From: a bacterium
Lineage (GTDB): Bacteria; DUMJ01
DNA: 64,000 nucleotides
Assembly (NCBI GenBank): GCA_012839925.1
Contig: DUMJ01000042.1
Coordinates: forward strand, 31,441 to 95,440
Direction of reading: 5' to 3'
In this document: one piece after another, positions 5,767 through 27,875 of the stretch
How the letters are laid out: the number at the start of each line of letters is the position of its first letter
Numbering within the stretch: position 1 is the stretch's first letter
Made by a program: the position numbers and the translations under genes
The notes under the pieces: model-generated
The model's database searches: none
Told to the model about the DNA's origin: nothing
Seen by the model: the letters and a program-made list of their open reading frames with translations, nothing else

Positions 5767-5835
5767 GGTTATATTATATATTATGTTTGAGGCTATTGCA
5801 ATATTAAAATTTTTTGATAAAATAATATATGTTAC

Positions 5836-5911: not shown

Positions 5912-5920
5912 CTTAGTAGA

Positions 5921-6006: not shown

Positions 6007-6018
6007 GTAGATAGAGAT

Positions 6019-6094: not shown

Positions 6095-6160
6095 ATAGAA
6101 GATTATTCTCGATAGCGTATGCTATCGAGTTATTTTTTATTAATATTTATGGAGGTATTG

Positions 6161-7974: not shown

Positions 7975-7983
7975 AGGTGATAT

Positions 7984-11578: not shown

Positions 11579-14174
11579 GGTCTATAATCCAGGAGAGATA
11601 GCTCAAAAATGGATAGATATATGGTTTAGCTCAGATATTTTTGCCCCTGATTTTAATAGGGGTAGTGAGGCATTTTCCATAGTATTACCACCTCCAAATG
11701 TAACTGGTAATCTTCACATAGGGCATGCACTTGGTTTTACCCTGGACGATGTGGTGGTTAGATATAAGAGGATGAAGGGTTTTGTAACTCTATGGGTTCC
11801 AGGTACAGACCATGCAGGGATAGCTACTCAGAATGTAGTGGAAAAAGAACTGGCTAAAGAAGGGTTGAGTAGATATGACCTTGGAAGAGAAAAGTTTTTG
11901 GAAAAGATATGGGAATGGAAAGATAGATACAGAAATAATATAGTTAACCAGCTCAGACAGATGGGCTTTAGCTGTGATTGGTCTAGAGAGAGATTTACTA
12001 TGGATGAACACTGCTCTAGAGCGGTTAGAACAGCATTTGTCTCTCTATATAAAAAAGGACTTATCTATAAAGGGGAAAGAATAATAAACTGGTGCCCCAG
12101 ATGCAAGACAGCTCTCTCTGATATAGAGGTAGAGTATGACGAGACTAAAGATAAACTATACTATATAAAATATCCATTAAAGGATGGAGGATATATTACT
12201 ATAGCTACGGTAAGACCTGAGACCATGCTGGGAGATACCGCTGTAGCAGTGAATCCTCAGGATGATAGATATAGAGGACTTATTGGTAAGATAGCTATAC
12301 TGCCACTGGTTGGTAGAGAGTTACCGATAATAGCTGATGAAGCTGTAGAATCAGATTTTGGAACGGGGGCTTTAAAGGTTACCCCTGCCCATGACCCGGC
12401 AGACTTTGAAATAGGTATCAGACACAGGCTTGATAGTATCAGAGTTATAGGTTTGGATGGCAGGATTGATTGTCCAGATATGGATACCTATACCGGTTTG
12501 GACAGGTTTGAAGCCAGAAAACTCATAGTAAGGCATCTGGAAGAGAATGGATATATAGAAAAGATAGAAGATTATACCCACAGTGTAGGGCAATGTGAGA
12601 GATGTGGAACTATAGTTGAACCCTTACTCTCATCCCAATGGTTTGTTTCAATGAAACCCCTGGCTCAAAAGGCATTAGAACGTGATAATGAGGTAAGATT
12701 TATACCAGAGAGATGGAGAAAGGTATATCATGATTGGTTGTTAAATATAAGAGACTGGTGTATTTCCAGACAGATATGGTGGGGACACAGGATACCGGTA
12801 TGGTACTGTGGGGATTGTAATGAAACCATAGTTGAAATGGAAGATCCGACTTCCTGCCCTAAGTGTGGGGGAAATAATTTAAAACAGGAAGAGGACGTTC
12901 TAGATACCTGGTTCAGTTCTGCCCTCTGGCCTATGAGTACCCTTGGCTGGCCGGATGAAACAGAGGACTTTAAGAAATTTTACCCGACTTCTCTTCTCAT
13001 AACCGGTTATGACATTATTTATTTCTGGGTAGCAAGGATGATAATGATGGGTTTGGAGTTCAGTGATAAGATGCCATTTAAAGATGTCTATATAACAGGG
13101 CTGGTTAGAGATGAGAAGGGGCGTAAGATGAGTAAATCTTTAGGGAATGTGATAGACCCTATGGAGATAGTTCGAGACCTTGGAACAGATAGTTTGAGAT
13201 TTGCCTTAACATCTCTGGTCACAGAAGGACAGGATGTAAACATAGGGAATGAAAAACTGGAAGGTGCTAGAAATTTTGCCAATAAGATATGGAATGCAGG
13301 AAGATTTATTCTTATGAGTATCTCTGATCCAGAAGTGCCATCTTCGCTTAATGAACTGGATATATTCAGTAGGTGGATATTGACAGTTATGGAAGAGACG
13401 ATAGAGAAAGCCACTATATGTTATGATAAGTATGATTTTAATGAGATAACTCAGCTTTTGTACAGCTTTTTCTGGGGTGATTTTTGTGATTGGTATATAG
13501 AGGTATCAAAGATACTCCTGAAGACTAATCCGGGTCATACAAGTTGGGTGCTACTTACTGTATTTAGAAATTATCTTAAACTCCTCCATCCCATTATGCC
13601 ATTTATTACAGAGGAACTCTGGAGTTATGTAAAGGATGAAGGAGATGATATTTTATCCCTCTCTAACTGGCCAGCTGACACAGGCTTTAAAGACCAGGAT
13701 AGCGTTAAGAAAGTTAATCTTATATTTGACATCATAAAAGCTATGAGGTCTTTAAAGCAGGAGATGGGGATACCGTTTGAAAAGAAGATAGCTGGTTTTG
13801 TGCATAGCAGGATGTATAATGAGCTCCTTTTATCCAATGTTCGTGTTATTTCTACCTTAGCCAGGATAGAACCGATAGATATACTACCAGAGTTATTACC
13901 CCCTCGGAAAGGGATTATCTCTAATATACAGCCAGACTTTGAAGTATATCTTGAGGTTGGCGGGGTAATAAATATAGATGAAGAGATAGAGAGACTTAAG
14001 AAGAAAATGGAAGAGATAGATTTGCAGATATGTAAGATTGAATCAAGACTTAGCAACAGGGATTTTCTTTTAAAAGCCAGGGAAGAAGCAAAAGAGAAAG
14101 AGAGGAATAGAAGAGAGAATTTATTAAAAGAGAAAGAAAAACTCTTACAGAGGTTAGCTCTTCTATCTTCCTAA
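11556..14174 (+). CDS. valS: Valine--tRNA ligase
   Basis: 872 aa; class I HIGH ([13 protein letters not shown]) and KMSKS (KMSKSLGN) motifs, C-terminal coiled coil; AAGGAGG RBS before ATG 11556. Confidence 0.95.
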
Positions 14175-14177
14175 TAG

Positions 14178-15479
14178 ATGGATATATCGTATCAGGATGC
14201 CATAGAGATTATAGAGGGTCTCTCTAATTTTGGCTCAAAGCTGGGTTTGGACCGTATCAAGAGGCTTCTGGATAGATTAGATAATCCTCAGGATAAGATA
14301 CCCGTTATTCATATTGGTGGAACAAACGGAAAAGGTTCTGTCTCAAGGATGATCTCATCTGTACTTACCAGAGCTGGCTATAAGGTTGGACTTTATACAT
14401 CTCCTCACCTTCATTCGATACGGGAAAGGATACAGATTAATAATAGATTAATAGACAAAGATTCTTTTGTAAATACATTAAAGATTCTGCTCCCCTATAT
14501 AGAAGAGCTCACTGATGAAGATGCCGATTTTTATCTTACCGAGTTTGAGATACTGACCGCTATGGCGTTCCTGTACTTTTATATGTCTAAGGTAGACGTA
14601 GTAGTTTTGGAAGTTGGACTGGGTGGGAGATTAGATGCTACCAATGTGGTAAATAATGTTTTGGTCTCAGTGATTACCAATGTGGATTGGGACCATATGG
14701 ATAGATTGGGTAATACTTTAAGTCTCATAGGTAGAGAGAAGGCTGGGATAATAAAGAGAGGAGTCCCGGTTGTTACAGGAGCCAGGGGAGAAGGGTTAGA
14801 TGTAATAGCTGATACTGCTAAGAAGCTGGATTCAAATCTATATATCTTGGGAAGAGATTTCTCAGCAGATTGGTATGTGCTATCTCAGGCTGGTACTGAG
14901 ATGGGTTTTAGAAATGAGATAAAGAGAGAAGAGCTTTTTACCGGGCTCAGAGGTACATATCAGGTAGACAATATGTCCATCGCTATGATGGGATTAGAGA
15001 TAATAAAAAATAGTTTACATTTTTCAGATTCTAGTCTTTTTCAGGGTTTGGCTGAGACATTCTGGCCAGGGAGGATGGAGATTGTTTCAAGAGACCCGTT
15101 AGTATTACTTGATGGTGCTCATAATAAGGGAGGAGCTGAAAAATTTGCCAGTTCTCTGAAGATTCTATTCGATATTAAACCCACACTGGTTGTAGGAATG
15201 CTTAAAGATAAAGATTCCTATGGTATAATAAGTTCAGTACTATCTCTGGCAAAAGAAGATGTTGTTGTAACGTCACCTAGGAATAGCAGAGCTCTCGATG
15301 CAGAAGCTTTGGGTAAAGTGGTTAAGGATCTGGGAGGTAATCCTATAGTTGTTCCTGATGTGAAAGAAAGTGTTAAGATGGCGATTCAGTTGGACTCTGA
15401 CTTTATCTCTGTTATGGGCTCTCTATATGTAGTTGCAGAAGCCCGAGAGGTATTTGTAAATGGGATAGAGAGAGACTAA
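14178..15479 (+). CDS. folC: Bifunctional folylpolyglutamate synthase / dihydrofolate synthase
   Basis: Mur-ligase P-loop HIGGTNGKGS, 433 aa. Confidence 0.9.
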   Translation: MDISYQDAIEIIEGLSNFGSKLGLDRIKRLLDRLDNPQDKIPVIHIGGTNGKGSVSRMISSVLTRAGYKVGLYTSPHLHSIRERIQINNRLIDKDSFVNTLKILLPYIEELTDEDADFYLTEFEILTAMAFLYFYMSKVDVVVLEVGLGGRLDATNVVNNVLVSVITNVDWDHMDRLGNTLSLIGREKAGIIKRGVPVVTGARGEGLDVIADTAKKLDSNLYILGRDFSADWYVLSQAGTEMGFRNEIKREELFTGLRGTYQVDNMSIAMMGLEIIKNSLHFSDSSLFQGLAETFWPGRMEIVSRDPLVLLDGAHNKGGAEKFASSLKILFDIKPTLVVGMLKDKDSYGIISSVLSLAKEDVVVTSPRNSRALDAEALGKVVKDLGGNPIVVPDVKESVKMAIQLDSDFISVMGSLYVVAEAREVFVNGIERD

Positions 15480-15499
15480 ATACATGAGGTGAATCAATA

Positions 15500-15835
15500 A
15501 TGAAATTAAAAGACCTTGAAGAATTACTGTCTGCTAAAGTATTATATGGAGAGTCCCTGCTCGATAAGGATGTGGATTATTTCTATGCCTCAGACCTTAT
15601 GAGTGATATATTAGCCACAGTTAAGGAACCAGGTGTTTTGATCACCGCTATGGTTCAACCTCAGGTAATGAGGACTATTCAGATGCTGGACCTTATTGGA
15701 GTTATCTTTGTAAATGGTAAGTGTCCGCCAGAAGATACGCTCAGGCTAGCCAGATCTATTGAAATTCCAGTACTGGTTACCAGATGTTCTATGTTTGAGA
15801 CCTGTGGAAAGATATATATGTCTCTGGTAAAATGA
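15500..15835 (+). CDS. DRTGG domain protein (hydrogenase-cluster associated)
   Basis: 111 aa; paralog of 17978..18313 (shared ...TLCGKIY / ...FETCGKIY C-terminus); DRTGG proteins typically accompany [FeFe]-hydrogenase regulatory genes. Confidence 0.6.
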   Translation: MKLKDLEELLSAKVLYGESLLDKDVDYFYASDLMSDILATVKEPGVLITAMVQPQVMRTIQMLDLIGVIFVNGKCPPEDTLRLARSIEIPVLVTRCSMFETCGKIYMSLVK

Positions 15836-16698
15836 GAGAAATCGAAAGAGATTTTTATGCCCTTTTAACACTTCCAGTCTCACTTATAATGAATTCTAAT
15901 ATGCCAAAGATCTTGCCTGATAGAAAGGTCTCACAGGTAAGAGAGATACTGCGGATAAATCAACTGGATGGAGTCGCTATAACCGATGAGGAGAGTAGGC
16001 TGGTGGGTATAGTCACCATGTATGACCTTCTCAAGGCTATAGAGGAAAATAAGAGGGACGTTCCTGTCGAAGAGATAATGACTGAGGATGTTATAACTCT
16101 TTCTCCTCATAATACTTTAGCGGACGCCATAGAGTATTTTCGTGTCTATGGGTATGGAAGATTTCCTGTTGTCGATGAGAATAAGGTTTTCCTTGGTATG
16201 GTAACCCCTTTAGACATAGTTATAAGACTTCCCAGTTTGAAAGAAGAGAAGGAAGAGATTAAAGAGGAGGAAAAGAGCAGGGTAGTAAGGCTTGAATTCT
16301 CAATTGAGGGTGGAGATTTTATTAATGGTGGAGAGGCTTCAAGTAAGATAAAAAGATACCTCCAAAATTTGGGATTACCCAATCATATTATTAGAAGAGT
16401 AGCTGTCGCCAGTTATGAAATGGAGATGAATATGGTAATACATGCCTATAGAGGTAAATTACTTATTGAGATATCTTCTGACAAGATTGTTATAAAGGCT
16501 ATAGATGAGGGACCTGGTATAGAAGACGTGGAGAAAGCCAAACAGCCTGGCTATTCGACCGCCTCTCCAAAAGTGAGAGAGTTAGGATTTGGTGCCGGGA
16601 TGGGACTTCCAAATATAATCTCCTGTTCAGATGAGTTTGATATAAAGAGTGCTGTTGGGGTGGGCACAGAAGTAACATCAATAATATATATAAGGTAG
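15832..16698 (+). CDS. CBS-pair + HATPase_c (RsbW-like serine kinase/anti-sigma-type) regulatory protein
   Basis: N-terminal tandem CBS-like segments, C-terminal GHKL ATPase motifs (IDEGPGI...GFGAGMGLP). Confidence 0.6.
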   Translation: MREIERDFYALLTLPVSLIMNSNMPKILPDRKVSQVREILRINQLDGVAITDEESRLVGIVTMYDLLKAIEENKRDVPVEEIMTEDVITLSPHNTLADAIEYFRVYGYGRFPVVDENKVFLGMVTPLDIVIRLPSLKEEKEEIKEEEKSRVVRLEFSIEGGDFINGGEASSKIKRYLQNLGLPNHIIRRVAVASYEMEMNMVIHAYRGKLLIEISSDKIVIKAIDEGPGIEDVEKAKQPGYSTASPKVRELGFGAGMGLPNIISCSDEFDIKSAVGVGTEVTSIIYIR

Positions 16699-16699
16699 G

Positions 16700-17974
16700 A
16701 TGAATGTTATGAGTATGATAAGGATAAACAAGGACCTGTGTAAGGGGTGTGTAAACTGTATAAGGGTTTGTCCCACGGAAGCTTTGAGGGTAAGATTTGG
16801 TAAGGTGGTTCTTTTAGAGGATAGATGTATAGATTGCGGTGAGTGTATAATAGCCTGTCCTGAACATGCCATAGAAGCAGAGACAGAAGAGGTCAGGGAT
16901 ATGTCTAACTATAGGATGAAGGTTGCTCTTGTAAGTTCTGTCCTTTATGCCCAGTTTGGATTGGATGTATCACCATACCTTATAAGGTCCGCTGTAAAAG
17001 AGATGGGTTTTGACCTTATTATGGATGTGGCTTTTGGCACTGAGGTTTCTACCCTCTATCTCAGAGAGTTAGTAAGAGAAAATCCTGAAAAACTTTATAT
17101 ATCTTCAATGTGTCCTTCAGTTGTTAAATTGATACAGATCAGATTCCCTTCTCTGGTAGAGTGTCTTACCCCTATAGCCTCACCTGAAGAGATATCAGCC
17201 AGATATATAAAAGAAAAGCTTATATCTGAAGGTTACAGGGAAGATGAGGTTGGAGTATTCCTTATTACTCCCTGTACTGCCAAAAGTGCAGATATAAAAG
17301 AGGGGAGAGGCTCTCATTATATAAATGGTACCATATCAGTCTCTGAGGCTTACAAATATATAATAAAGTCTCTTAAGACAGTAAAAGAGGATCGTAGTGG
17401 TCCTATCTTTGGGGAAGGAATAAGCTGGGTGAGAGATGGAGGAGAGGCTAAGAGCCTTGGCATATTAAATTACCTGGTTGTCGATGGGGTGAAGAATGTA
17501 CTGAAAGTTTTGGATGACCTGGAGCTGGGTAAACTGAGAGGAATAAATTTTATTGAGGGAAGAATGTGTGGGGGAGGTTGTGTTGGTGGTCCTTTAAATG
17601 TTCAGAACCCGTATCTTGCCAGGGTAAAGATAAGGATGTTAGAGGATACCTACAAGGAGAGTATAGATAAATCTCTATATGAATATCTGGAAGCTAATGA
17701 CTACTTTGCTGGAGAGGAAATCAGGGTTGATTCTTCTCCATACAAATTAGGTGAAGACGTCAGCAGTGCTATAGAGAGGATGCAGGAACTGGAGGAGATA
17801 CTAAAAACTTTACCCGGTATCGATTGTGGCTCCTGTGGAGCTCCAACCTGCAGGGCTTTGGCAGAGGATATAGTAAGTGGAGATGCCAGAATAACAGACT
17901 GTATCTTTAAGCTTAAAGACAATATTGAAGAGTATGCCAGAAGTTTATTAAAAATGATTAGAGAGGTAAAATAA
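16700..17974 (+). CDS. hydS: [FeFe]-hydrogenase-like protein, putative sensory (HydS-type, group C)
   Basis: Two N-terminal 4Fe-4S motifs (CKGCVNCIRVCP, CIDCGECIIACP). H-cluster motifs are modified: L1 SSMCPS (canonical TSCCP), L2 PCTAK, L3 EGRMCGGGCVGGP. C-terminal CGSCGAPTC-x16-C (Cx2Cx4Cx16C) accessory cluster motif. Confidence 0.75.
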   Translation: MNVMSMIRINKDLCKGCVNCIRVCPTEALRVRFGKVVLLEDRCIDCGECIIACPEHAIEAETEEVRDMSNYRMKVALVSSVLYAQFGLDVSPYLIRSAVKEMGFDLIMDVAFGTEVSTLYLRELVRENPEKLYISSMCPSVVKLIQIRFPSLVECLTPIASPEEISARYIKEKLISEGYREDEVGVFLITPCTAKSADIKEGRGSHYINGTISVSEAYKYIIKSLKTVKEDRSGPIFGEGISWVRDGGEAKSLGILNYLVVDGVKNVLKVLDDLELGKLRGINFIEGRMCGGGCVGGPLNVQNPYLARVKIRMLEDTYKESIDKSLYEYLEANDYFAGEEIRVDSSPYKLGEDVSSAIERMQELEEILKTLPGIDCGSCGAPTCRALAEDIVSGDARITDCIFKLKDNIEEYARSLLKMIREVK

Positions 17975-17977
17975 TAT

Positions 17978-18313
17978 ATGACGTTTAGAGAATTACTTGG
18001 GAATTTGCCATTAGAAAACCTGGGGGATGATTTTGATCTGGATAAGTCCCCCAGGGGTGGGTATGTGGGAGACCTGCTCAGTAACGTAATGAGATTTGCC
18101 AAAGAGGGCAATGTCTGGATCACTGTTCAAACTCATATAAATGTTATAGCGGTTGCTACTCTGGTTGGCATAAGTGGGATAATATTCCCCTGTGGAGTAG
18201 AACCTCCAGAAGAGACTATAAAGAAAGCCAGGGAGGAACATATAGCTCTCCTTACCACAAAGTTAGATGCCTTTACACTCTGTGGTAAAATATATGAGTT
18301 AGGTATTAGATGA
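17978..18313 (+). CDS. DRTGG domain protein (second paralog)
   Basis: 111 aa, similar length and C-terminal motif to 15500..15835. Confidence 0.6.
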   Translation: MTFRELLGNLPLENLGDDFDLDKSPRGGYVGDLLSNVMRFAKEGNVWITVQTHINVIAVATLVGISGIIFPCGVEPPEETIKKAREEHIALLTTKLDAFTLCGKIYELGIR

Positions 18314-19059
18314 GATTTGCTTTGGACCTCCATATACATACTCTTTTATCTCCCTGTGCGGGGATAGAGATGATACCTGTAAATATAGTGAGGAGAGTGC
18401 AGGAAGTAGGAATTGATATAATGGCTGTTACTGACCATAATGCAGTGGGTAATGCTGAAAGTGTGATAAAGTCCGCATTAAAGTATGCACCGGGTCTTGG
18501 GGTCTTTCCAGGGATTGAGGTCACCTCTAAAGAAGAGGTTCATATATTGGGGATTCTACCCTCGGTGGAATCTGCCAGGAAACTTGAATCTATGATACAC
18601 TCCCACCTGGTTAATCCTCCGGTAAAAGATTCTCTCGCTGAACAATTGATAGTTGATGAAGATGCAAACTTTATTAGATATGAAGAACATTTTCTTATGG
18701 GGGCGACAGACTTTTCTGTAGAAGAAGTATCAGATCTGATTCACTCTTTTGATGGGATAGTTATACCTGCTCACATTGACAGAGAGTCCTTTGGTCTTAT
18801 ATATAATCTTGGGTTATTTCCTCCCGATCTTGAGGTAGATGCAGTAGAGGTTTCCAAATTTGCTAAAGAAAGCACTTTAGTAAACCTTAGACGTCTTATC
18901 CCTCCGGATGTTCCGGTATTATTTTCCAGTGATGCCCATTTCCTGGATGATATAGTTCCTCCCAGAAGTTTCTTAGAATTGATGGATAAGAGTTTTGATT
19001 CATTAAAAGAAGCATTAAAAAATTATGGATATGTCAGGAATCATAAAACAGGAGGTTAA
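18310..19059 (+). CDS. PHP-domain metal-dependent phosphoesterase
   Basis: N-terminal LDLHIHTLLS...AVTDHN PHP signature; 249 aa. Confidence 0.7.
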   Translation: MRFALDLHIHTLLSPCAGIEMIPVNIVRRVQEVGIDIMAVTDHNAVGNAESVIKSALKYAPGLGVFPGIEVTSKEEVHILGILPSVESARKLESMIHSHLVNPPVKDSLAEQLIVDEDANFIRYEEHFLMGATDFSVEEVSDLIHSFDGIVIPAHIDRESFGLIYNLGLFPPDLEVDAVEVSKFAKESTLVNLRRLIPPDVPVLFSSDAHFLDDIVPPRSFLELMDKSFDSLKEALKNYGYVRNHKTGG

Positions 19060-19061
19060 AG

Positions 19062-19523
19062 ATGGATTCGACTCAGATAAGGCAGTTAAATGAAATAATA
19101 TCCAGATGGACAGGTAAACCTGGAGCCTTGATGCCAGTTCTTCAGGAGATTCAGGAGAAGTTTGGATATATCCCTGAAGATGCGATGAAAGAAGTATCTG
19201 CAAAATTGAATATTCCATTACCTGAGGTATACGGTGTGGTGACCTTCTATCATTTCTTCTCACTGAAACCCAAGGGGAAATATAAGATTCAAGTATGTGA
19301 AGGGACGGCATGCTATGTAAAGGGTGCAAAAAGGGTGTTAGAGAAGTTTGAAGAGGTTTTAGGTATAAAAGTTGGAGACGTCACTCCTGATGGCAAGTTT
19401 TCTATAGAGAGTGTAAGGTGTATAGGAGCGTGCAGCCACGCACCAGCTGTTATGATAAATGACCAGGTGTATGGTCGTATGAATTCGGAAAAAGTATCAC
19501 AGTTGATAAAGACACTCAAATGA
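19062..19523 (+). CDS. hydC: NuoE-like [2Fe-2S] subunit (HydC-type) of NADH-linked bifurcating module
   Basis: 153 aa; thioredoxin-like 2Fe-2S cysteines CEGTACYVKG...CIGACSHAP. Confidence 0.85.
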   Translation: MDSTQIRQLNEIISRWTGKPGALMPVLQEIQEKFGYIPEDAMKEVSAKLNIPLPEVYGVVTFYHFFSLKPKGKYKIQVCEGTACYVKGAKRVLEKFEEVLGIKVGDVTPDGKFSIESVRCIGACSHAPAVMINDQVYGRMNSEKVSQLIKTLK

Positions 19524-20062
19524 TGGAAGAACTTTCCCTGCATATTCTGGATATAGCTGAGAATGGTATAAATGCCGGGGCGAACTGTGTAGAGATAGAA
19601 GTGGATATTGAGAAAAGTAAGGACCTTATGACTATAAAGGTCAGGGATAACGGTAAGGGGATGGACTCTGAAATTCTGGATAAGATAAGAGACCCTTTTT
19701 TCACAACCAGAACTACCCGTAAGGTGGGGCTGGGAGTATCCTTTTTAGACGAACTGGCAGAGCTTACTGGGGGAAGACTTGATATAGATTCTACGCCGGG
19801 TATAGGGACCACTGTCAGGTTGGAGCTTCCTATCAGTCATCCAGATAGACCACCTTTAGGGGATATCATCTCCACTCTTATAACTTTATCTATGATCAAT
19901 ACTGAAGTAAGGATAACTTATGTTGAAAGGAGAGATGATAAGGTCTGGTCCTTTGACTCTGATCAGATTAAGGATTTTCTGACTGACTACTCCTTATTGG
20001 GGAAAATAAAAGAAATATTATATAATAGTTATAAAGATTTTATTGGAGGTGAACTAATTTGA
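19520..20062 (+). CDS. Histidine-kinase-like ATPase (HATPase_c only; HydD-type)
   Basis: 180 aa; GHKL motifs RDNGKGMD, GLGVSF; this gene sits between nuoE- and nuoF-like genes in [FeFe]-hydrogenase operons of thermophilic Firmicutes/Thermotogae. Confidence 0.65.
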   Translation: MMEELSLHILDIAENGINAGANCVEIEVDIEKSKDLMTIKVRDNGKGMDSEILDKIRDPFFTTRTTRKVGLGVSFLDELAELTGGRLDIDSTPGIGTTVRLELPISHPDRPPLGDIISTLITLSMINTEVRITYVERRDDKVWSFDSDQIKDFLTDYSLLGKIKEILYNSYKDFIGGELI

Positions 20063-20430
20063 AATCTTTAGAAGATTTAAAAAGAATAAGAGAGCAGGCG
20101 CAGGCTCAGATAAAACTTAGAACTCAGGAAGCTAACACAAAGATAATAGTTGGGATGGGAACCTGTGGTATAGCCGCAGGTGCAAGAGAGACCCTTATGG
20201 CTATCCTGGATGAGTTATCAAAGAGAAATATTCAGGATGTGGTGGTTACTCAGACTGGATGTGTAGGATTATGCGAGTATGAACCTCTGGTAAACGTTGT
20301 AAAGCCAGGACAACCAAAAATTACCTATATGAAAGTAACTCCAGAGAGAGCAAGACAGATAGTTGCAAGTCACATAGTAAATGACCAGATTATAAATGAA
20401 TGGGTATTGAGTACAGAAGAAGGAGCATAG
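20059..20430 (+). CDS. Thioredoxin-like [2Fe-2S] ferredoxin
   Basis: 123 aa, GMGTCGIAAG...GCVGLCEYEP cysteine pattern. Confidence 0.7.
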   Translation: MKSLEDLKRIREQAQAQIKLRTQEANTKIIVGMGTCGIAAGARETLMAILDELSKRNIQDVVVTQTGCVGLCEYEPLVNVVKPGQPKITYMKVTPERARQIVASHIVNDQIINEWVLSTEEGA

Positions 20431-20431
20431 T

Positions 20432-22243
20432 ATGGCTATAATAAGGACGAATGTTCTGATATGTGCTGGTAGTGCCTGTGTATCATCAAGGGCATACGAT
20501 TTTAAAACCGCACTTTTAGAGGCATTAGAAGAGGCTGGGATAAAAGAAGAAGTAAATGTTGTTGATACTGGATGTATAGGAACCTGTGATTTGGGTCCGG
20601 TAGCTATTGTATATCCAGATGGAATCTTTTATGTCCATCTTAAACCAGAAGATGCCAAGGTTATAGTTAATGAGCATCTTCTAAAAGGCAGGGTGGTTAA
20701 TAGGCTCCTTTATCAGCAACCTATGACAAAAGAGGTATTTCCATCACTTTCAGAGATAGATTTTATAGTAAGACAGAAAAGAATAGTTTTAAGAAATATG
20801 GGGGTTATAGACCCGGAGAGTATAGAAGAGTATATAGCTAAAGAGGGATACCAGGCTCTGGCTAAAGCTCTTACTATGAGTCCTGAAGATGTTATAGACA
20901 CTGTTAAAAAGTCAGGACTGAGAGGAAGAGGTGGGGCAGGTTTCCCTACCGGATTAAAATGGGAGCTTACCCGTAAAGCGACCGGTAATCCCAAATATGT
21001 AATATGCAATGGTGATGAAGGAGACCCAGGTGCATTTATGGATAGAAGTGTACTGGAAGGTGACCCTCATAGCATTATTGAAGGGATGATGATCGCTGGT
21101 TATGCGGTAGGGGCCAGTAAAGGATTCTTCTATGTGAGAGCTGAGTATCCGCTGGCTATAAAGAGGATTGAGAATGCTCTTGAACAGGCAAGGAGTTATG
21201 GGCTTATTGGAGAGAATATACTTGGGACAGATTTTTCTTTTGATATAGAGCTTAGAAGAGGGTCAGGTGCTTTTGTATGTGGAGAAGAAACAGCTCTCAT
21301 CGCCTCCATTGAAGGTGGAAGAGGAGAGCCACGTCCACGTCCACCTTATCCAGCTAACAGAGGATTATGGGATAGTCCAACAGTGATAAATAATGTGGAG
21401 ACACTGGCTAATATTTCTCCCATAATCTTAAATGGTGCTGAATGGTTTAGCAGTACAGGTACAGAGAAGAGTAAGGGGACAAAGGTTTTTGCCCTTGCGG
21501 GTAAGGTCAATAATACCGGTCTTATTGAAGTCCCATTTGGAACTACACTTGGAGAGATTATCTTTGATGTTGGGGGTGGGATACCAGGTGGGAAAAAATT
21601 TAAGGCAGCCCAGACAGGTGGACCATCTGGTGGCTGTATACCTGCAGAGTATCTAGATCTTCCTATAGATTATGAGTCTTTAAAACAGATAGGAGCTATA
21701 GTAGGTTCAGGTGGTCTTATCATTATGGATGAGGATACCTGTATGGTTGATGTGGCAAGATTCTTCCTGGAATTTACTCAGAGTGAGTCCTGTGGTAAAT
21801 GTCCACCATGTCGTGTAGGGACAAGAAAGATGCTGGATATCCTGGAGAGAATAGTAAATGGTGAAGGGGAAGAGGGAGATATAGAAAGACTGATAGAGTT
21901 AGGTGAAGAGATAAGAAGAGATTCATTGTGTGGTCTCGGTCAGACCGCTCCAAATCCCGTGCTGAGTACTATAAGATTCTTCAGGGATGAGTATGAGGCT
22001 CATATTAGAGAGAAGAGATGTCCTGCTAAATCTTGTCGGGCTCTTATCGCATATCAGGTAATACCGGATAAGTGCAGAGGATGTGGTATATGTGCCAGGG
22101 TTTGTCCGGTAGGTGCAGCTCAGGGTAAACCCAGAGAGATTTATCATATAGACACGGGATTATGTATAAAGTGTGGAGACTGCTTTGCCAAGTGTCCTTT
22201 TGGAGCGATAGAAAAGGCAGATCTTGTTTTAGAAAAAGTTTAA
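20432..22243 (+). CDS. hydB: NuoF-like NADH-binding flavoprotein (HydB-type) with N-terminal 2Fe-2S and C-terminal 2x[4Fe-4S] domains
   Basis: 603 aa; GLRGRGGAGFPTGLKWE FMN/NADH motif, ESCGKCPPCRVGT 4Fe-4S, C-terminal CRGCGICARVCP...CIKCGDCFAKCP. Confidence 0.9.
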   Translation: MAIIRTNVLICAGSACVSSRAYDFKTALLEALEEAGIKEEVNVVDTGCIGTCDLGPVAIVYPDGIFYVHLKPEDAKVIVNEHLLKGRVVNRLLYQQPMTKEVFPSLSEIDFIVRQKRIVLRNMGVIDPESIEEYIAKEGYQALAKALTMSPEDVIDTVKKSGLRGRGGAGFPTGLKWELTRKATGNPKYVICNGDEGDPGAFMDRSVLEGDPHSIIEGMMIAGYAVGASKGFFYVRAEYPLAIKRIENALEQARSYGLIGENILGTDFSFDIELRRGSGAFVCGEETALIASIEGGRGEPRPRPPYPANRGLWDSPTVINNVETLANISPIILNGAEWFSSTGTEKSKGTKVFALAGKVNNTGLIEVPFGTTLGEIIFDVGGGIPGGKKFKAAQTGGPSGGCIPAEYLDLPIDYESLKQIGAIVGSGGLIIMDEDTCMVDVARFFLEFTQSESCGKCPPCRVGTRKMLDILERIVNGEGEEGDIERLIELGEEIRRDSLCGLGQTAPNPVLSTIRFFRDEYEAHIREKRCPAKSCRALIAYQVIPDKCRGCGICARVCPVGAAQGKPREIYHIDTGLCIKCGDCFAKCPFGAIEKADLVLEKV

Positions 22244-22258
22244 GAAAGGAGTAGACCT

Positions 22259-23185
22259 ATGGATCAGAAACTGTATGTATCTGCTCCACCACATATCAGG
22301 TCTGATACAGATGCAAAATTTCTCATGCGCCAGGTGATAATAGCTCTATTAGCTCCAACTGTAGCGGGTGTGATATTTTTTGGCGGCAGGGCTCTCCTGA
22401 TTTTAGTTATATCTGTGTTGAGTTCAATTTTTTGGCAGAGATTGATGATATACATCAAGAAAGAAAAGAGACCCTTAGATGGCAGTGAAGTGGTAACAGG
22501 ACTTCTCATTGGTCTTAATCTCTCCCCACTGGTGCCGTGGTGGATACCTGTAGTGGGAACATTTATAGCTATAGTGCTGGCTAAAGAACTTTTTGGCGGT
22601 CTGGGTTTCAACATCTTTAATCCGGCACTTATAGCCAGAGCATTCCTTTTAGCCTCCTGGCCTATGGAAATGACAACCTGGGCTGCTCCATTTACTGGGG
22701 TAACTCAGGCTACACCTTTAGCACTTTTAAAGTTACAACATGTATCTACCCCTTATATCAGTCTTTTCCTGGGTAATAGAGGAGGGTGTATTGGAGAGAC
22801 CTCTGTTCTGGCACTACTTATTGGTGCTGCTTATCTTTTTTATAAAGGGGTTATTGATTGGAGGACACCGATTCCATATATCCTTACTGTGGGTGTCTTA
22901 TCCCTTATTTTTGGACAGGACCCGCTGTTTCACATGATGTCAGGAGGACTTGTCCTTGGGGCATTTTTTATGGCTACTGATTATACAACCACCCCTGTTA
23001 CCAAGTCTGGAAGGATAATCTTCGGTATAGGGTGCGGAGTTATAACTATACTTATAAGGCTCTTTGGAGGATATCCTGAGGGTGTATCTTACAGTATTCT
23101 CTTTATGAATGCTATGACACCCTTAATAGACCGCTGGACTATCCCTAAGCCTTTTGGCTATAGGGTTGAAAGGAGGAGAGTATGA
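22259..23185 (+). CDS. rnfD: RnfD/NqrB-family membrane subunit
   Basis: 308 aa polytopic; GGLGFNIFNPALIARAF motif and TDYTTTPVT flavinylation-type motif near C-terminus. Confidence 0.8.
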   Translation: MDQKLYVSAPPHIRSDTDAKFLMRQVIIALLAPTVAGVIFFGGRALLILVISVLSSIFWQRLMIYIKKEKRPLDGSEVVTGLLIGLNLSPLVPWWIPVVGTFIAIVLAKELFGGLGFNIFNPALIARAFLLASWPMEMTTWAAPFTGVTQATPLALLKLQHVSTPYISLFLGNRGGCIGETSVLALLIGAAYLFYKGVIDWRTPIPYILTVGVLSLIFGQDPLFHMMSGGLVLGAFFMATDYTTTPVTKSGRIIFGIGCGVITILIRLFGGYPEGVSYSILFMNAMTPLIDRWTIPKPFGYRVERRRV

Positions 23186-23772
23186 AGTTTCTTCGTCCTC
23201 TGATAAATGGAATATGGAAAGAAAATCCCATACTTGTCCTTATGATAGGACTCTGTCCGACACTGGCTGTCTCAACTGCGGCTATAAATGGTATATATAT
23301 GGGATTAGCAGCCACCTTTGTTTTGGCAGGGTCAAACCTGATAATATCCCTTATTAGAAAATGGGTTCCAGATCAGGTCCGTATACCTATCTTTATCACC
23401 ATAATAGCCGCTTTTGTTACTGTAGTGGATATGGTTATGCATGCCTATGTTCCTGAGATGTATAAAATACTGGGGATTTTTATTCCATTAATCGTTGTTA
23501 ACTGTATAATACTTGGCAGGGCAGAAGCCTTTGCCTACCAGAATGGACCTATTGAATCTTTAGGGGATGGGATAGGTATGGGGATAGGTTTTACTCTTAT
23601 TTTACTGATTCTTGGTAGTATAAGAGAACTGTTAGGTAATGGAACAATTTTTGGATTTCAGATTATGCCAGTAACTTATAAACCTGTATTACTAATGATA
23701 CTTCCTCCTGGTGCCTTTCTAACTATTGGTTTCTTACAGGCTCTACAGAGATATAGAGGAGGTAAAGAATAA
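23182..23772 (+). CDS. rnfE: RnfE/NqrD-family membrane subunit
   Basis: 196 aa; LVLMIGLCPTLAVST...; 4-bp overlap with rnfD. Confidence 0.8.
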   Translation: MKFLRPLINGIWKENPILVLMIGLCPTLAVSTAAINGIYMGLAATFVLAGSNLIISLIRKWVPDQVRIPIFITIIAAFVTVVDMVMHAYVPEMYKILGIFIPLIVVNCIILGRAEAFAYQNGPIESLGDGIGMGIGFTLILLILGSIRELLGNGTIFGFQIMPVTYKPVLLMILPPGAFLTIGFLQALQRYRGGKE

Positions 23773-24356
23773 TGTTTTCTCATCTTCTTCTCTTATTTAT
23801 AGGGGCGCTACTGGTAAATAATATACTACTTATAAGATTTATAGCTTTATGCGCTTTCTTTGGTGTATCAAACTCGATGAGTACATCGATAGGTATGGGT
23901 ATGGCAGTGACATTTGTTATGGTCCTCACATCATCTGTAACCTGGATTCTCTGGAATTTTGTTCTTGTACCTCTTCATCTTGAATATCTCCAGATATCCG
24001 TATTTATTCTTACCATCGCTGCTTTAGTACAGTTTGTTGAATTATTCCTTAAGAAGAATAGCCCTTCGTTATATAGGGCTATGGGTATATATCTACCTCT
24101 AATTACCACAAACTGTGCTATACTTGCAGTAGCTTTCATACATGTCTCAAGTAATTTTAATTTTATAGAGACGATTGTATATACTATAGGTGTGAGTGGG
24201 GGTTATACCCTTGCCATCGTTATGTTTGCAGGTATAAGGGAGAGATTGGCTTCTGCACCTGTACCCAGGGCATTCCAGGGTTACCCTCTTGCCTTTATAA
24301 CTGCAAGTCTTATGTCTCTGGCTTTTTTGGGATTTAAGGGGTTGTTTGGACTATAG
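23772..24356 (+). CDS. rnfA: RnfA/NqrE-family membrane subunit
   Basis: 194 aa; LLVNNILLIRFIALCAFFGVS..., start overlaps rnfE stop. Confidence 0.8.
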   Translation: MFSHLLLLFIGALLVNNILLIRFIALCAFFGVSNSMSTSIGMGMAVTFVMVLTSSVTWILWNFVLVPLHLEYLQISVFILTIAALVQFVELFLKKNSPSLYRAMGIYLPLITTNCAILAVAFIHVSSNFNFIETIVYTIGVSGGYTLAIVMFAGIRERLASAPVPRAFQGYPLAFITASLMSLAFLGFKGLFGL

Positions 24357-24373
24357 AAAGGAGGAGAATAGAA

Positions 24374-24610
24374 ATGGCTGAGAATAGTGATTGGAGATTA
24401 GCAGATTTTATTGGGATAAAAGCCCTGGAGAACGGGGTTACGATAATCGGTCTTACCAGAGGAAAGGAAACCAGAATCAGTCATACAGAGAAACTCGATG
24501 CCGGGCAGGTTATGTTTGCACAGTTTACTGAGAATGTTTCAGCTATGAAGATTGAAGGAAAGGCTGAGATATACACCAAGTTTGGGAAGATAACTAGCGG
24601 AGATATCTAA
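24374..24610 (+). CDS. Small hypothetical protein (78 aa)
   Basis: Strong RBS AAGGAGGAG 7 nt before ATG; 17 nt after rnfA stop, 15 nt before glmS; no recognisable motifs. Confidence 0.4.
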   Translation: MAENSDWRLADFIGIKALENGVTIIGLTRGKETRISHTEKLDAGQVMFAQFTENVSAMKIEGKAEIYTKFGKITSGDI

Positions 24611-24625
24611 AGGAGGAAATTTTAG

Positions 24626-26455
24626 ATGTGTGGAATTGTTGGTTATTTAGGTAAGAAAAAGGCTGTCCCTATACTTATAGACAATCTGAAGAGACTGGAG
24701 TATAGAGGGTACGATTCAGCAGGAGTAGCGATAATCGAAGATTCATCTCTTATTGTGGAGAAGAGTGTGGGTAAATTATCAAAACTAGAATCTATAGTGA
24801 TCCCAAAGGATTTTCCTTCCACTATTGGTATAGGGCATACCAGATGGGCAACTCATGGTAAACCTTCAGATATAAATGCACATCCACATACTGATTGCAA
24901 GGGTGAGATAGCCCTGGTTCACAATGGGATCATAGAAAATTATACAGATTTGAAAGATGAGCTTATATCAGAAGGTCACAGGTTCCTCTCTGAAACAGAT
25001 ACAGAAGTGATAGTTCATCTGGTAGAGAAGTACTACGCTGGAGACCTCCTGGAAGCTGTAAGAATGGCGATTAAAAGGTTGGAAGGTTCTTATGCTATAG
25101 CTGTGATTTCTTCTAAAGAGCCAGAAAAGATTGTAGTTGCCAGAAAGGATAGCCCATTAGTGCTTGGAATAGGTGAAGGGGAATACTTTGTAGCTTCAGA
25201 TATACCAGCAGTCTTAAACTATACCCGTAATATATGGATCTTGGAAAATGGCGAGATGGGAGAGCTTTCTCCTTCAGGCTGTAAGGTATATGATCTGGAT
25301 GGCAATGAGAAGAAGAAAGAGACAATGGTCGTATCGTGGGATATATCTATGGCAGAAAAAGGTGGATATCCCCACTTTATGATAAAAGAGATCCATGAAC
25401 AACCAAATGCGCTGAGAGAAACATTTAGAGGAAGGGTTGGAAGTGATGGTCTGGTTAAACTCGACCTTAAAAGTGTTACTATTGATGACTTGAGAAATCT
25501 TAGAAAACTCTATTTTGTTGCCTGTGGAACAGCCTATCATGCAGGACTTGTAGGTAAATATCTAACAGAGAGATTTGTTCGAATTCCAGTAGAGGCAGAT
25601 ATAGCAAGTGAGTTTAGATACCGAGACCCAATTTTTGAAAAGAATAGCTTAATGATTGTTATCAGTCAGTCTGGAGAAACAGCAGATACCCTGGCAGCAT
25701 TACGTATGGCTAAGGAGAACGGAGTTAAGGTCGTGGCGATATGTAATGTGGTTGGAAGTTCAATCGCCAGAGAGTCTGATGATGTTCTGTATACATATGC
25801 TGGACCTGAGATTGCTGTTGCATCCACCAAAGCATATACCTCGCAGCTTATGGTGATATATCTGTTTATGCTACTTCTAGCACAGATAAAAGGGACCTTA
25901 CCACTAGATAAGATTAAAGAGTTTGTCGAAGACCTCAGGAAAATACCTGAAGTAGCCAGTGAGGTTTTAAATAAATTGGAGCCTGCAATTATAGACCTCT
26001 CCAGGAGATATTATAAGGCTCATGACGTATTCTTTATTGGAAGAGGTTTGGATTACGCCCTTAGCCTGGAGGGGGCGTTAAAGCTTAAAGAAATATCTTA
26101 TATTCATGCCGAGGCTTATGCTGCAGGAGAATTAAAACATGGTCCATTATCACTTTTAGAAGAAGGTGTCCCTGTGGTATGCCTGGCTACTCAAGGTTAT
26201 CTGCTGGATAAGATGGTAAGCAATATAAAAGAGGTAAAAGCCAGAGAGGCTATCGCCATTGGTTTTGGAATAGAGGGGAATGAAGGACTAAAAAATGTAT
26301 GTGATGAGACATTCTTTATTCCCAAGATAAACGATATATATGCCTCTGTAATTACTGTGATTCCACTTCAGCTCCTTGCCTATTATATGGCAAAGGAGAG
26401 AGGTTGTGATATAGACCAGCCAAGAAACTTGGCAAAGTCAGTTACTGTAGAATAA
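24626..26455 (+). CDS. glmS: Glutamine--fructose-6-phosphate aminotransferase (isomerising)
   Basis: MCGIVGY N-terminal Ntn-amidotransferase Cys, two SIS domains, 609 aa. Confidence 0.95.
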   Translation: MCGIVGYLGKKKAVPILIDNLKRLEYRGYDSAGVAIIEDSSLIVEKSVGKLSKLESIVIPKDFPSTIGIGHTRWATHGKPSDINAHPHTDCKGEIALVHNGIIENYTDLKDELISEGHRFLSETDTEVIVHLVEKYYAGDLLEAVRMAIKRLEGSYAIAVISSKEPEKIVVARKDSPLVLGIGEGEYFVASDIPAVLNYTRNIWILENGEMGELSPSGCKVYDLDGNEKKKETMVVSWDISMAEKGGYPHFMIKEIHEQPNALRETFRGRVGSDGLVKLDLKSVTIDDLRNLRKLYFVACGTAYHAGLVGKYLTERFVRIPVEADIASEFRYRDPIFEKNSLMIVISQSGETADTLAALRMAKENGVKVVAICNVVGSSIARESDDVLYTYAGPEIAVASTKAYTSQLMVIYLFMLLLAQIKGTLPLDKIKEFVEDLRKIPEVASEVLNKLEPAIIDLSRRYYKAHDVFFIGRGLDYALSLEGALKLKEISYIHAEAYAAGELKHGPLSLLEEGVPVVCLATQGYLLDKMVSNIKEVKAREAIAIGFGIEGNEGLKNVCDETFFIPKINDIYASVITVIPLQLLAYYMAKERGCDIDQPRNLAKSVTVE

Positions 26456-26486
26456 TATTATTGGGGGGTAGGTAGGTCAATAGAAT

Positions 26487-26810
26487 TCAGTCTTTTATCT
26501 GTTCCCTATGGTGCAGCCCTACCAGTTCAGACACTAAAAAAGTAAATATGATACCGGTACCTGGTTCGTTAAGCCTACCTACTTTAATAATAGTATCATA
26601 TATGGGTTTATATTTATCAATCTCGCTAAGTATCAAGATGATTTCTTTCGATGCTTCAATATGAATATTAAAAAACTCTAATGCTTCCGCTTGTCCTGTC
26701 CCTCTCCCATAAAGAATAGTAGCTCCTTTTGCTCCTGCCTTTTTTGCCATATCTACAATTTTATCTGCTTTCCCTCTTTCGACAATAGCAACTATACATT
26801 TAATATCCAT
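26487..26810 (-). CDS. PII-like (GlnB-fold) signalling protein
   Basis: 107 aa; ...IVAIVERGKADKIVDMAKKAGAKGATILYGRGTG... pattern typical of PII-like/DUF190-type proteins; downstream of membrane protein in same operon. Confidence 0.55.
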   Translation of the reverse strand: MDIKCIVAIVERGKADKIVDMAKKAGAKGATILYGRGTGQAEALEFFNIHIEASKEIILILSEIDKYKPIYDTIIKVGRLNEPGTGIIFTFLVSELVGLHHREQIKD

Positions 26811-26827
26811 ATAACTCCATCCTCCTA

Positions 26828-27529
26828 TTATATCCTTGTAAGTATTCCTAATACTAACACTGATATTACTACTCCAATAGAAGTAAGTCCTACTGTGCCA
26901 AAACCAAACAGCAGAGGATCGACTCCTTCCAGTATTTTTGCTAGTCCCACCGATAAAGCTGTGATCAGTGGAACATTTACTGGACCCGTTGTTGCGCTTG
27001 CTGAATCCATTGCGATGGATATAAATTCCTCTGGAGAAAAATAGATTAACACGGTAATCAATAAAATTAGAGGGAGCACAACCTTTATATAAGGTATATT
27101 ATTCAACGTTTTATATACCCCTATGCTCATTCCAGTACCAACACCGATGGCAACAGCGTAAACTAGAATTCTATTAGATATGGCTCCTATAGATATCTCC
27201 TCAACCTCCAAAGCCAGTGCTTTTAGAGCTGGTTCTACAAGAGTGCTGAATACACCTATTACGAAAGTTATAATAATTATCAACCATTTTCTCTCTAATA
27301 CTACTAAATTCTCCCCAACTGAATCCCCTAAAGGGAAAATACTCATGGAAATACCCTTTAGAAAGAGATGCAAACCAAATATACTGAGCAGAAGTCCTAT
27401 ACTAAATTCTTTAACATTTTCAATGGGTTTCTTTAATATCACCAGCTGAAAGAAAATCAGAGTGAAAACTAAGGGAAGTATACTTCTTGCAGTTTCTAAT
27501 AAATCGCTCAAACCTTTTAATTCTTTCAT
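26828..27529 (-). CDS. Polytopic membrane protein (DUF1538-like putative transporter) partnered with PII-like protein
   Basis: 233 aa, about 7 hydrophobic segments; 17-nt gap to PII-like gene. Confidence 0.45.
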   Translation of the reverse strand: MKELKGLSDLLETARSILPLVFTLIFFQLVILKKPIENVKEFSIGLLLSIFGLHLFLKGISMSIFPLGDSVGENLVVLERKWLIIIITFVIGVFSTLVEPALKALALEVEEISIGAISNRILVYAVAIGVGTGMSIGVYKTLNNIPYIKVVLPLILLITVLIYFSPEEFISIAMDSASATTGPVNVPLITALSVGLAKILEGVDPLLFGFGTVGLTSIGVVISVLVLGILTRI

Positions 27530-27647
27530 TTCATCCTCCTTGTAAAGGGTAGATAATCCTTATCCTCAGAGTACATCCGATCCCTACGAATATTATTTAT
27601 GACAAGATGTCTTCTATGCTCTTCTTTTCACGCATCACCCCTTTCAT

Positions 27648-27875
27648 TCTATGTTCATCTATCGATGTGTGCCTGCATTACCCTTCAAGCCTCAATGTAC
27701 CATAAACTACTCTGGAAACTTATAAGTAAAGGTATACCTAATTTTTGATAATAAGGTACCCCATAAAGAGGGATACTTAACTTCGTACAGGATATAGATG
27801 CTATCTATTATAGAGTAGATAAGCCTCTTTCTCAAGAACCTTTCGATATTAATCGTTGGAAATGATTGGCTAGCG
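27648..27875. repeat. Repeat copy A (two conserved blocks ~54 and ~45 nt)
   Basis: 27648..27701 is ~83% identical to 33142..33195; 27831..27875 is ~85% identical to 33231..33276, same order and orientation. Confidence 0.7.

Follow-up and report, generated by a model that had tools for sequence, protein, structure and literature searches.

The stretch of DNA analysed here, referred to as the window, comprises 64,000 nucleotides of contig DUMJ01000042.1 and originates from an uncultured biogas-reactor bacterium. Of the Rnf complex the window carries only three membrane genes, rnfD, rnfE and rnfA, and these are located directly behind genes for a flavoprotein acting on reduced nicotinamide adenine dinucleotide (NADH). 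Both sets are part of an unbroken, closely packed gene array on the + strand (14178-26455), in which genes for a NuoE-like, an HATPase, a small ferredoxin-like and a NuoF-like protein (stop at 22243) precede rnfD (start at 22259), rnfE and rnfA. The TAA stop codon of the nuoF-like gene is followed by GAAAGGAG, 15 nt ahead of the rnfD ATG; rnfD and rnfE overlap by 4 bp (ATGA), and rnfE and rnfA by 1 bp (TAATG). The gene identities and coordinates put forward in an original prediction, made from the sequence alone, are confirmed by Pfam, and the junction sequences agree with its nuoF stop, rnfD start and two overlaps.

The three Rnf proteins contain the elements expected of a membrane core. RnfD (22259-23185, +; PF03116 NQR2_RnfD_RnfE, E=9e-114), with subunit D of a solved Rnf complex as its best match in the PDB (7zc6_D, 339 bits), includes the riboflavin site and Thr152 for attachment of flavin mononucleotide (FMN). 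This threonine lies within the motif TQATPL, a variant which is also present in canonical RnfD proteins. For the shared intramembrane Fe-S centre, RnfE (23182-23772, +; PF02508 Rnf-Nqr, E=4e-70) supplies Cys25 and Cys108, and RnfA (23772-24356, +; PF02508 Rnf-Nqr, E=1e-54) Cys27 and Cys114.

The preceding block starts with the [2Fe-2S] subunit NuoE/HydC/BfuC (19062-19523, +; PF01257 2Fe-2S_thioredx, E=1.5e-56), followed by a HisK-like protein (20062 being the last position of its gene, which starts at 19520, +; Pfam HATPase_c), the 'hisK' of hydrogenase operons, which is not expected in the holoenzyme. The next gene (20059-20430, +) encodes a protein of 123 residues that was originally taken for a 2Fe-2S ferredoxin. 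A match to the thioredoxin-like 2Fe-2S fold does exist, although it is weak (2Fe-2S_thioredx, E=0.002), but the protein contains three cysteines, not four, and is HydD/HndB-like; its PDB matches are the N-terminal domains of BfuB-type subunits. In the [NiFe]-hydrogenase NiFe-HydABCSL of Acetomicrobium mobile, hisK and hydD are likewise carried in the operon, and neither product is found in the holoenzyme (PMC9304861).

The flavoprotein NuoF/HydB/BfuB (20432-22243, +) consists of an N-terminal thioredoxin-like 2Fe-2S domain, Complex1_51K, SLBB and NADH_4Fe-4S domains and two Fer4 domains. As predicted, this Pfam architecture holds an FMN and NAD(H) site and C-terminal 2x[4Fe-4S] clusters, in addition to an N-terminal 2Fe-2S and an N3-type 4Fe-4S cluster. 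With HydB/HndC of Firmicutes and Dictyoglomus the protein shares 65-69% sequence identity, and its best PDB matches, both aligned over the full length, are HydB of an [FeFe]-hydrogenase (7q4v_B, 881 bits) and subunit B of NiFe-HydABCSL (7t2r_B, 880 bits). The hallmarks of BfuB are present as His524 (H525 in A. mobile), Cys437, Cys530 and Cys535, all invariant in 113 homologues, i.e., the conserved histidine and three of the four cysteine ligands of the B2 cluster that mark a bifurcating BfuB. The position of A. mobile C476, a ligand of the B2 [2Fe-2S] cluster, is occupied by Val or Ile here; since 109 of the closest 113 HydB homologues have Thr or Val, it does not discriminate. Both by its BfuB architecture and by the BfuC gene encoded alongside, the pair belongs to the Bfu family.

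No RnfC_N, FMN_bind, RnfB-type, ApbE or group-A HydA match was obtained with Pfam in the scanned open reading frames of the window (those of at least 150 residues, plus shorter ones within 15000-27500). Profile hidden Markov models, built from 61-71 canonical sequences (67 for RnfG) and run on all open frames of at least 50 residues, did not reveal any gene for RnfC, RnfG or RnfB in the window and adjoining sequence, ~92 kb. The only match to the RnfC profile is the HydB-type NuoF, with 61 bits compared to ~650 bits for a real RnfC. The RnfB profile matches a putative sensory hydrogenase, HydS (56 bits), and NuoF (23 bits) in the window, neither of which has an N-terminal membrane anchor, and the RnfG profile has no match in the ~92 kb. 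The predicted absence of rnfG between rnfD and rnfE, and of rnfC and rnfB from the window, is thus borne out by Pfam and profile searches alike.

An rnfDEA-only cluster or an Rnf-linked BfuBC core is not described in the Rnf/Nqr review, the survey of the Bfu family (PMC9304861), the survey of flavinylation (PMC8238504) or anything retrieved by full-text searches, in agreement with the prediction that no complex of this architecture had been described. The rnfDEA-only set is a real, previously unreported anomaly.

Conservation of the arrangement and related operons

The homologues of RnfD include a tight clade with 76-99% identity, all from metagenomes or metagenome-assembled genomes (MAGs), and the next relatives are 60% identical. 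In the clade loci that were read (L001, L002, L005-L007 and L086-L089; JGI, ENA and NCBI assemblies) the gene order is identical from valS to glmS, including the succession NuoE, HATPase, ferredoxin-like, NuoF, RnfD, RnfE, RnfA and a TRAP homologue. Synteny in relatives, proposed at the outset as a check, therefore holds, with the same order in at least ten independent assemblies of one narrow uncultured clade. Since the arrangement recurs in independent assemblies from JGI, ENA and NCBI, it is not a product of chance or misassembly.

Pairwise Nei-Gojobori estimates of the ratio of non-synonymous to synonymous substitution (dN/dS) are 0.04-0.10 for rnfD, rnfE and rnfA, similar to those of glmS and nuoE (~0.04-0.09 for the latter), and the proportions of synonymous differences, 0.6-0.77, are near saturation. 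The most conserved gene of the block is the hydD-like gene, with 91-96% identity to the window (91-97% over all pairs) and dN/dS of ~0.02-0.04. At columns conserved in at least 90% of canonical sequences the clade proteins deviate at 2-5 of 79 positions in RnfD, 0-1 of 44 in RnfE and 2-3 of 38 in RnfA, which is within the canonical range. RnfD, RnfE and RnfA are under strong purifying selection and have kept all cofactor ligands. Conservation in the clade extends to both terminal arms of RnfD (N-terminal VSxPPHI, C-terminal PLIDRWTxPKPFG). In the Rnf complex of Clostridium tetanomorphum (7ZC6) the first 20 residues of RnfD are enclosed by RnfC and the C-terminal arm lies on RnfC (PMC9588780), and the conserved arms would thus argue that an RnfC-like partner still binds. 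The clade NuoF proteins deviate at 8-10 of 259 highly conserved columns, mostly conservatively and at the upper end of the canonical range, and end in a poorly conserved C-terminal tail of 7-10 residues; as sequence signs of a switch of partner these features are weak.

Outside the clade, a set of about 150 RnfD loci was drawn from metagenomes and 185,579 species genomes; in every one of them rnfC adjoins rnfD or rnfG, mostly in the order rnfC-D-G-E-A-B or rnfC-G-D-E-A-B. The rnfDEA architecture is specific to one narrow lineage. The closest RnfD outgroups (L003, L180 and L181; 59-60% identity) are all canonical, and no intermediate architecture is found among them. In one of these, L181 (3299-9909), rnfC-D-G-E-A is accompanied by an RnfB of 102 residues, consisting of the PF04060 FeS (FdI) domain only, with apbE nearby. 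This short RnfB resembles the shortened RnfB of Thermotoga maritima mentioned in PMC9588780. In another, L180 (1-3441), a fusion of a NuoF-like and a GltD/Pyr_redox part (1039 residues) is followed by a group-A HydA of 593 residues, a few kb 5' of a sensor module and rnfCDGEAB.

Two further arrangements in other lineages bear on the origin of the locus. In L097, L099 and L102 (about 3900-13700) hydC-hydB-hydA is followed immediately, on the same strand, by rnfCDGEAB, in a tandem hydrogenase-Rnf super-operon. Four metagenome contigs of another lineage (L155, 8605-12986; L157, L161 and L168) carry rnfC-D-E-A-B with overlapping rnfD and rnfE and no rnfG (FMN_bind) within 16 kb, which shows that rnfG can be absent from an rnf operon. 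A displaced RnfG in the form of a 214-residue open reading frame behind rnfB in L155 was considered and ruled out, as this is an Arg-rich antisense frame with no Pfam match at E<=10. A plausible route to the present gene order is fusion of a sensor-controlled hydCB operon to an rnf operon, with rnfC, rnfG and rnfB subsequently lost or relocated.

The genes preceding rnfD had been recognized as the conserved start of bifurcating-hydrogenase operons. This is supported by Desulfofundulus kuznetsovii, in which genes for DRTGG, HATPase_c_2, HydS, DRTGG, NuoE, HATPase, ferredoxin-like and NuoF proteins are followed by a group-A hydA of 574 residues. The Dictyoglomus MAG L179 carries DRTGG, CBS-HATPase_c_2, HydS, two small open reading frames, PHP, NuoE, HATPase, ferredoxin-like and NuoF, followed by an MFS transporter. 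Because the hydA-less hydC-hisK-hydD-hydB operon recurs, as in Dictyoglomus, the gene behind nuoF need not encode its partner.

The [NiFe] cluster and other flanking genes

Two contigs from a biogas fermenter (L172 and L169), which are 100% identical to positions 1-12992 and 51832-64000 of the window, extend past both of its ends. On the minus strand, 3.0-6.7 kb ahead of the first window position (L172 1524-5177), an operon encodes a NuoG-like HydA and the small and large subunits of a [NiFe]-hydrogenase. The NuoG-like protein (552 residues, -) consists of Fer2_4, NADH-G_4Fe-4S_3, Fer4_Nqo3 and Molybdop_Fe4S4 domains, the small subunit (180 residues, -) of Oxidored_q6, and the large subunit (475 residues, -) is HoxH-like, its gene being followed by hypA, hypB and hypF. 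The prediction that hydA is absent is therefore correct for the window, but not for the chromosome, on which this NuoG-like HydA lies together with the [NiFe] genes 3-7 kb past the left edge. No NuoE or NuoF gene is present in the operon on L172. The best PDB relatives of the NuoG-like protein and the large subunit belong to A. mobile NiFe-HydABCSL (7t2r_A, 2e-79, and 7t2r_D, 3e-185 over the full length, respectively). The [NiFe] large subunit, like RnfD and NuoF, belongs to a group of close sequences (85-100% identity for the large subunit) set off by a gap from all others (at most 71%), and lone clusters of NuoG-like, [NiFe] small and large subunit genes are also found in Dictyoglomaceae (L177) and Caldisericia (L178).

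Directly upstream of nuoE lies an H2-sensor/regulator module. It comprises, all on the + strand, a DRTGG-domain protein (15500-15835), a regulator with a CBS pair and an HATPase_c_2 domain, resembling anti-sigma-type Ser kinases (15832-16698), a putative sensory group D (M2e) [FeFe]-hydrogenase, HydS-like (16700-17974; Pfam 2x Fer4, Fe_hyd_lg_C and a C-terminal PF04060 FeS domain), a second DRTGG-domain protein (17978-18313) and a PHP-domain phosphoesterase-like protein (18310-19059). The PHP match (E=1.1e-05, 26.3 bits) is just below the gathering cut-off of 26.4 bits; a PHP gene occupies the equivalent position in the Dictyoglomus operon. HydS (424 residues) contains the motifs SSMCPS, PCTAK, MCGGGCVGG and CGSCGAPTCx16C and two N-terminal 4Fe-4S motifs, and has no PAS domain. 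The proton-relay cysteine (C299 in CpI) is replaced, the motif being SSMCPS instead of TSCCP, and a C-terminal Cx2Cx4Cx16C is present. These features, and the position upstream of a bifurcating hydrogenase core, place HydS in group D (M2e) as defined, together with a description of TamHydS, in PMC8163306. HydS was also considered as the absent catalytic HydA and ruled out, given the lack of the C299 relay cysteine, the C-terminal Cx2Cx4Cx16C domain and the lack of a NuoG-type N-terminus. As the best match to the RnfB profile in the window, HydS has in common with RnfB the PF04060 FdI-type cluster domain and 2x[4Fe-4S], and has no membrane anchor. In the clade member L002, HydS is called as two open reading frames (4470-5183, 237 residues, and 5237-5734, 165 residues), which indicates a frameshift or stop in a block that is otherwise intact.

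The same sensor module is located ahead of hydrogenase operons (L085 and L179) and of canonical rnf operons (L003 and L180). In the latter two (L003 5258-13732 and L180 5281-13804) the group-D module (DRTGG, CBS-HATPase_c_2, HydS, DRTGG) lies directly 5' of rnfCDGEAB, which suggests that H2-responsive control extends beyond hydrogenases to Rnf. The CBS-HATPase_c_2 regulator is 42% identical to its counterpart in L003. The identities of the sensor module to the rnf-linked copy in L003 and the hydrogenase-linked copy in L085 are similar, and do not separate the two as donor operon types.

Behind rnfA follow a homologue of TRAP/MtrB, the trp RNA-binding attenuation protein (24374-24610, +), whose RNA targets would be leaders with GAG/UAG repeats, and GlmS (24626-26455, +; Pfam). 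The former, an open reading frame of 78 residues with a strong Shine-Dalgarno site, had been suggested as an accessory subunit. This suggestion fails: the protein matches PF02081 TrpBP over profile positions 3-68 of 69 (E=9.4e-34), its gene lies between rnfA and glmS in every clade locus, and it is a neighbour gene and a subunit of neither complex. Gaps of 15-20 bp separate unrelated neighbours in the array as well (folC and DRTGG, rnfA and mtrB, mtrB and glmS). Because the unrelated folC, mtrB and glmS are packed equally tightly, the 15-bp gap between nuoF and rnfD is not special, and adjacency by itself is weak evidence for a complex. A scan for promoters and terminators (13500-27800) yielded counts equal to those of shuffled sequence, with no terminator at any gene junction.

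Elsewhere in the window, a P-II-like protein (107 residues) adjoins a DUF1538 membrane protein (26487-27529, -), convergent with glmS. An open reading frame of 213 residues (32173-32814, +) with a weak transposase-domain match (DUF772, E=0.001), possibly a remnant of an insertion sequence, lies where the gene orientation switches. EtfB, EtfA and an FAD-linked oxidase are encoded in tandem (48620-51793, +), in the layout of an electron-confurcating lactate dehydrogenase/Etf system. In acetogens such systems depend on reduced ferredoxin.

Possible roles of the rnfDEA genes

The explanation favoured here, to which we give about an even chance of being right, is operon fusion. The NuoE- and NuoF-like proteins would form the core of a split NiFe-Bfu hydrogenase, and rnfDEA would be the core of a canonical Rnf complex, placed under the same H2-responsive control and with its peripheral subunits encoded elsewhere. 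In this explanation, positions 15500-24356 would be a single co-directional array, presumably co-transcribed and controlled by the H2-sensing module (DRTGG, CBS-HATPase_c_2, HydS, DRTGG and PHP). The NuoE/NuoF-like pair, with hisK and hydD as passengers, would make up the BfuC/BfuB core that provides a bifurcating hydrogenase with FMN and with its sites for NAD(H) and ferredoxin. The half that feeds in electrons would most likely be the NuoG-like HydA and the [NiFe] small and large subunits encoded ~22 kb upstream, presumably by physical pairing with this core; together they would represent an NiFe-HydABCSL of the A. mobile type that is split across two operons, as in Dictyoglomus. A complete NiFe-Bfu enzyme is inferred because BfuBC occurs without BfuA at the locus, and BfuA with both [NiFe] subunits occurs without BfuBC 22 kb away. 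The NuoE/NuoF-like proteins are probably the BfuBC core of such an enzyme, as far as gene complement and homology can tell. With a NuoG-like and [NiFe] cluster that has no NuoEF of its own at this distance, the empty 'hydA slot' does not require Rnf to be filled. The RnfDEA proteins would still serve at the core of a ferredoxin:NAD+ oxidoreductase that translocates ions, and RnfC-, RnfG- and RnfB-type subunits would be supplied from elsewhere in the genome, a solution which is favoured over replacement by BfuBC. Through the position of rnfDEA behind the hydrogenase flavoprotein genes, both systems that balance ferredoxin and NADH would come to share H2-responsive control.

Several observations count against this explanation. 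The copies of rnfC, rnfG and rnfB that it assumes in trans are not found, nor are FMN_bind and ApbE, in the ~92 kb or in the flank of any clade locus, and for each of the three GTDB genomes of the clade, the 80 best hits of a scan limited to 599 pattern matches include a single RnfD locus, the present one. Split rnf operons are uncommon: rnfC stays next to rnfD or rnfG in all of the ~150 non-clade loci. BfuBC could supply precisely what is absent, namely an NAD(H)/FMN module and ferredoxin-type clusters. Finally, the pairing of BfuBC with the [NiFe] module is drawn from complementarity and homology only.

The original prediction proposed instead a hybrid complex, in which a NuoEF-type flavoprotein would dock to a minimal Rnf membrane core and could stand in for RnfC and RnfB, possibly with ion translocation. 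In an extended form of this idea the BfuBC core would sit on the cytoplasmic face of RnfDEA and operate without RnfG, as a membrane-bound ferredoxin/NADH enzyme that is perhaps also wired to the [NiFe] module. The losses are indeed complementary, as exactly rnfC, rnfB and hydA are gone from the locus and BfuB offers two [4Fe-4S] clusters at its C-terminus along with an FMN domain like that of RnfC. The partner-binding arms of RnfD are retained, and BfuB has the NuoF-like subdomains that are also part of RnfC. The nuoF-rnfD junction has been kept in at least ten independent assemblies despite saturated synonymous sites, and the 8-10 deviating columns and C-terminal tail of the clade NuoF could be read as weak signs of a new partner. 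BfuBC cores are also modular; their known or predicted combinations take in a wide range of modules, Mbh and Nuo in the membrane among them, as well as BfuA-less 'type 4' forms (PMC9304861). However, BfuB does not contain an RnfC_N domain, and NuoF bears no sign of a partner switch, being as close to subunit B of the NiFe-Bfu enzyme as to ordinary HydB (65-69% identity). A better-fitting partner, the NuoG-like and [NiFe] subunits without NuoEF, is encoded 22 kb away, nuoF is the last gene of the Dictyoglomus operon, and genes are closely spaced throughout the array. Moreover, in the 7ZC6 structure RnfG is the mobile shuttle from the iron centre of RnfAE to the FMN of RnfD, with a blocked state at 29 Å and a conducting state at 8 Å (PMC9588780). 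Without RnfG this connection, the only one known, would be missing and no RnfG-free electron path is known; the 2025 Rnf/Nqr review holds RnfD, RnfA, RnfE and RnfG to be strictly conserved. The complementarity noted in the prediction thus stands, but the hybrid is not the best-supported explanation and appears doubtful, clearly behind operon fusion.

Export of electrons in one direction is still less probable, and distinctly unlikely. Electrons from NAD(P)H or ferredoxin would in this case pass via NuoEF to RnfD (riboflavin, FMN) and/or RnfAE and on to an extracytosolic flavinylated acceptor encoded elsewhere, with no return loop. Partial NQR/RNF-like systems paired with FMN-binding proteins have been documented bioinformatically (PMC8238504), and at the present locus the flavinylation threonine of RnfD is kept and RnfG is absent. 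Yet such systems are defined by a nearby ApbE or FMN_bind gene, of which there is none in the ~92 kb, and use RnfD alone, whereas RnfE and RnfA are here under equally strong selection; the conserved RnfC-binding arms of RnfD also speak against it.

A functionless remnant, in which rnfDEA would be left over from a deleted hydA-rnfC...rnfB region, as deletions in a tandem hydCBA-rnfCDGEAB of the kind seen in other lineages could produce, is very unlikely and close to refuted by the selection analysis, because dN/dS is low (in the range of GlmS and NuoE, with near-saturated synonymous sites) and cofactor ligands and conserved columns are retained, and none of the three genes is disrupted in any of the clade members examined, with strong Shine-Dalgarno sites and translational coupling preserved.

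Rnf and Nqr are generally treated as six-subunit machines, with a coupling mechanism built on RnfG shuttling electrons outside the membrane, and an incomplete Rnf in a MAG is usually scored as absent. If the partners of RnfDEA are encoded elsewhere, an Rnf complex need not be encoded and regulated as one unit, which calls for caution in pathway calls from MAGs. If the hybrid were true, another cytoplasmic module and another electron path could drive the Rnf membrane core, with a bearing on redox-ion coupling and on the modularity of BfuBC; the chemistry of NADH, ferredoxin and perhaps H2 would be tied directly to ion translocation along a path unlike that in any solved Rnf or Nqr. In addition, a split NiFe-Bfu arrangement would be common to the clade, Dictyoglomus and Caldisericia, and group-D sensor modules front rnf as well as hydrogenase operons.

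Comparison with known systems

Whichever explanation holds, the locus is a variant of known systems. Compared to the RnfABCDEG complexes of C. tetanomorphum (7ZC6) and Acetobacterium woodii (9ERI), it encodes orthologous RnfD, RnfE and RnfA, in which the flavinylation threonine, the four Fe-S cysteines and the RnfD arms are kept. Unlike in those complexes, no rnfC, rnfG or rnfB is present in the operon or in the ~92 kb, and rnfD is located behind a HydB-type gene.

The similarity to NiFe-HydABCSL of A. mobile (7T2R/7T30) comprises the full-length match of NuoF to subunit B and the presence of hisK and hydD alongside hydC and hydB. In contrast to A. mobile, the genes are distributed over two operons ~22 kb apart on opposite strands, and the BfuBC half is flanked by a group-D [FeFe] sensor module at its 5' side and by rnfDEA at its 3' side. 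The NuoG-like subunit is also shorter, 552 compared to 692 residues, and aligns over residues 4-297 only.

With the operons of FeFe-HydABC and tetrameric hydrogenases (D. kuznetsovii; HydB of 7Q4V) the locus has in common the sensor module and the order hydC-hisK-hydD-hydB, and NuoF is 69% identical to HydB of D. kuznetsovii. The group-A hydA of D. kuznetsovii is absent, however, and rnfD occupies its position. In Dictyoglomus L179 these genes recur in identical order, with CBS-HATPase_c_2 and PHP among them; no hydA lies at the 3' side, and a lone NuoG-like and [NiFe] small and large subunit cluster is present in the family. The difference is that nuoF is followed by the MFS transporter, and that no close Dictyoglomota RnfD occurs among the best 80 genome hits.

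The partial 'NQR/RNF-like' systems described by Meheust et al. (2021; PMC8238504) similarly combine a subset of Rnf/Nqr membrane proteins with a non-canonical cytoplasmic NAD(P)H module. Those systems join a single RnfD/NqrB-like domain to an NqrF-type NAD domain in one protein and have ApbE or FMN_bind genes nearby, whereas the locus in the window combines three separate membrane subunits with a module of the NuoEF type, and neither ApbE nor FMN_bind was found with it.

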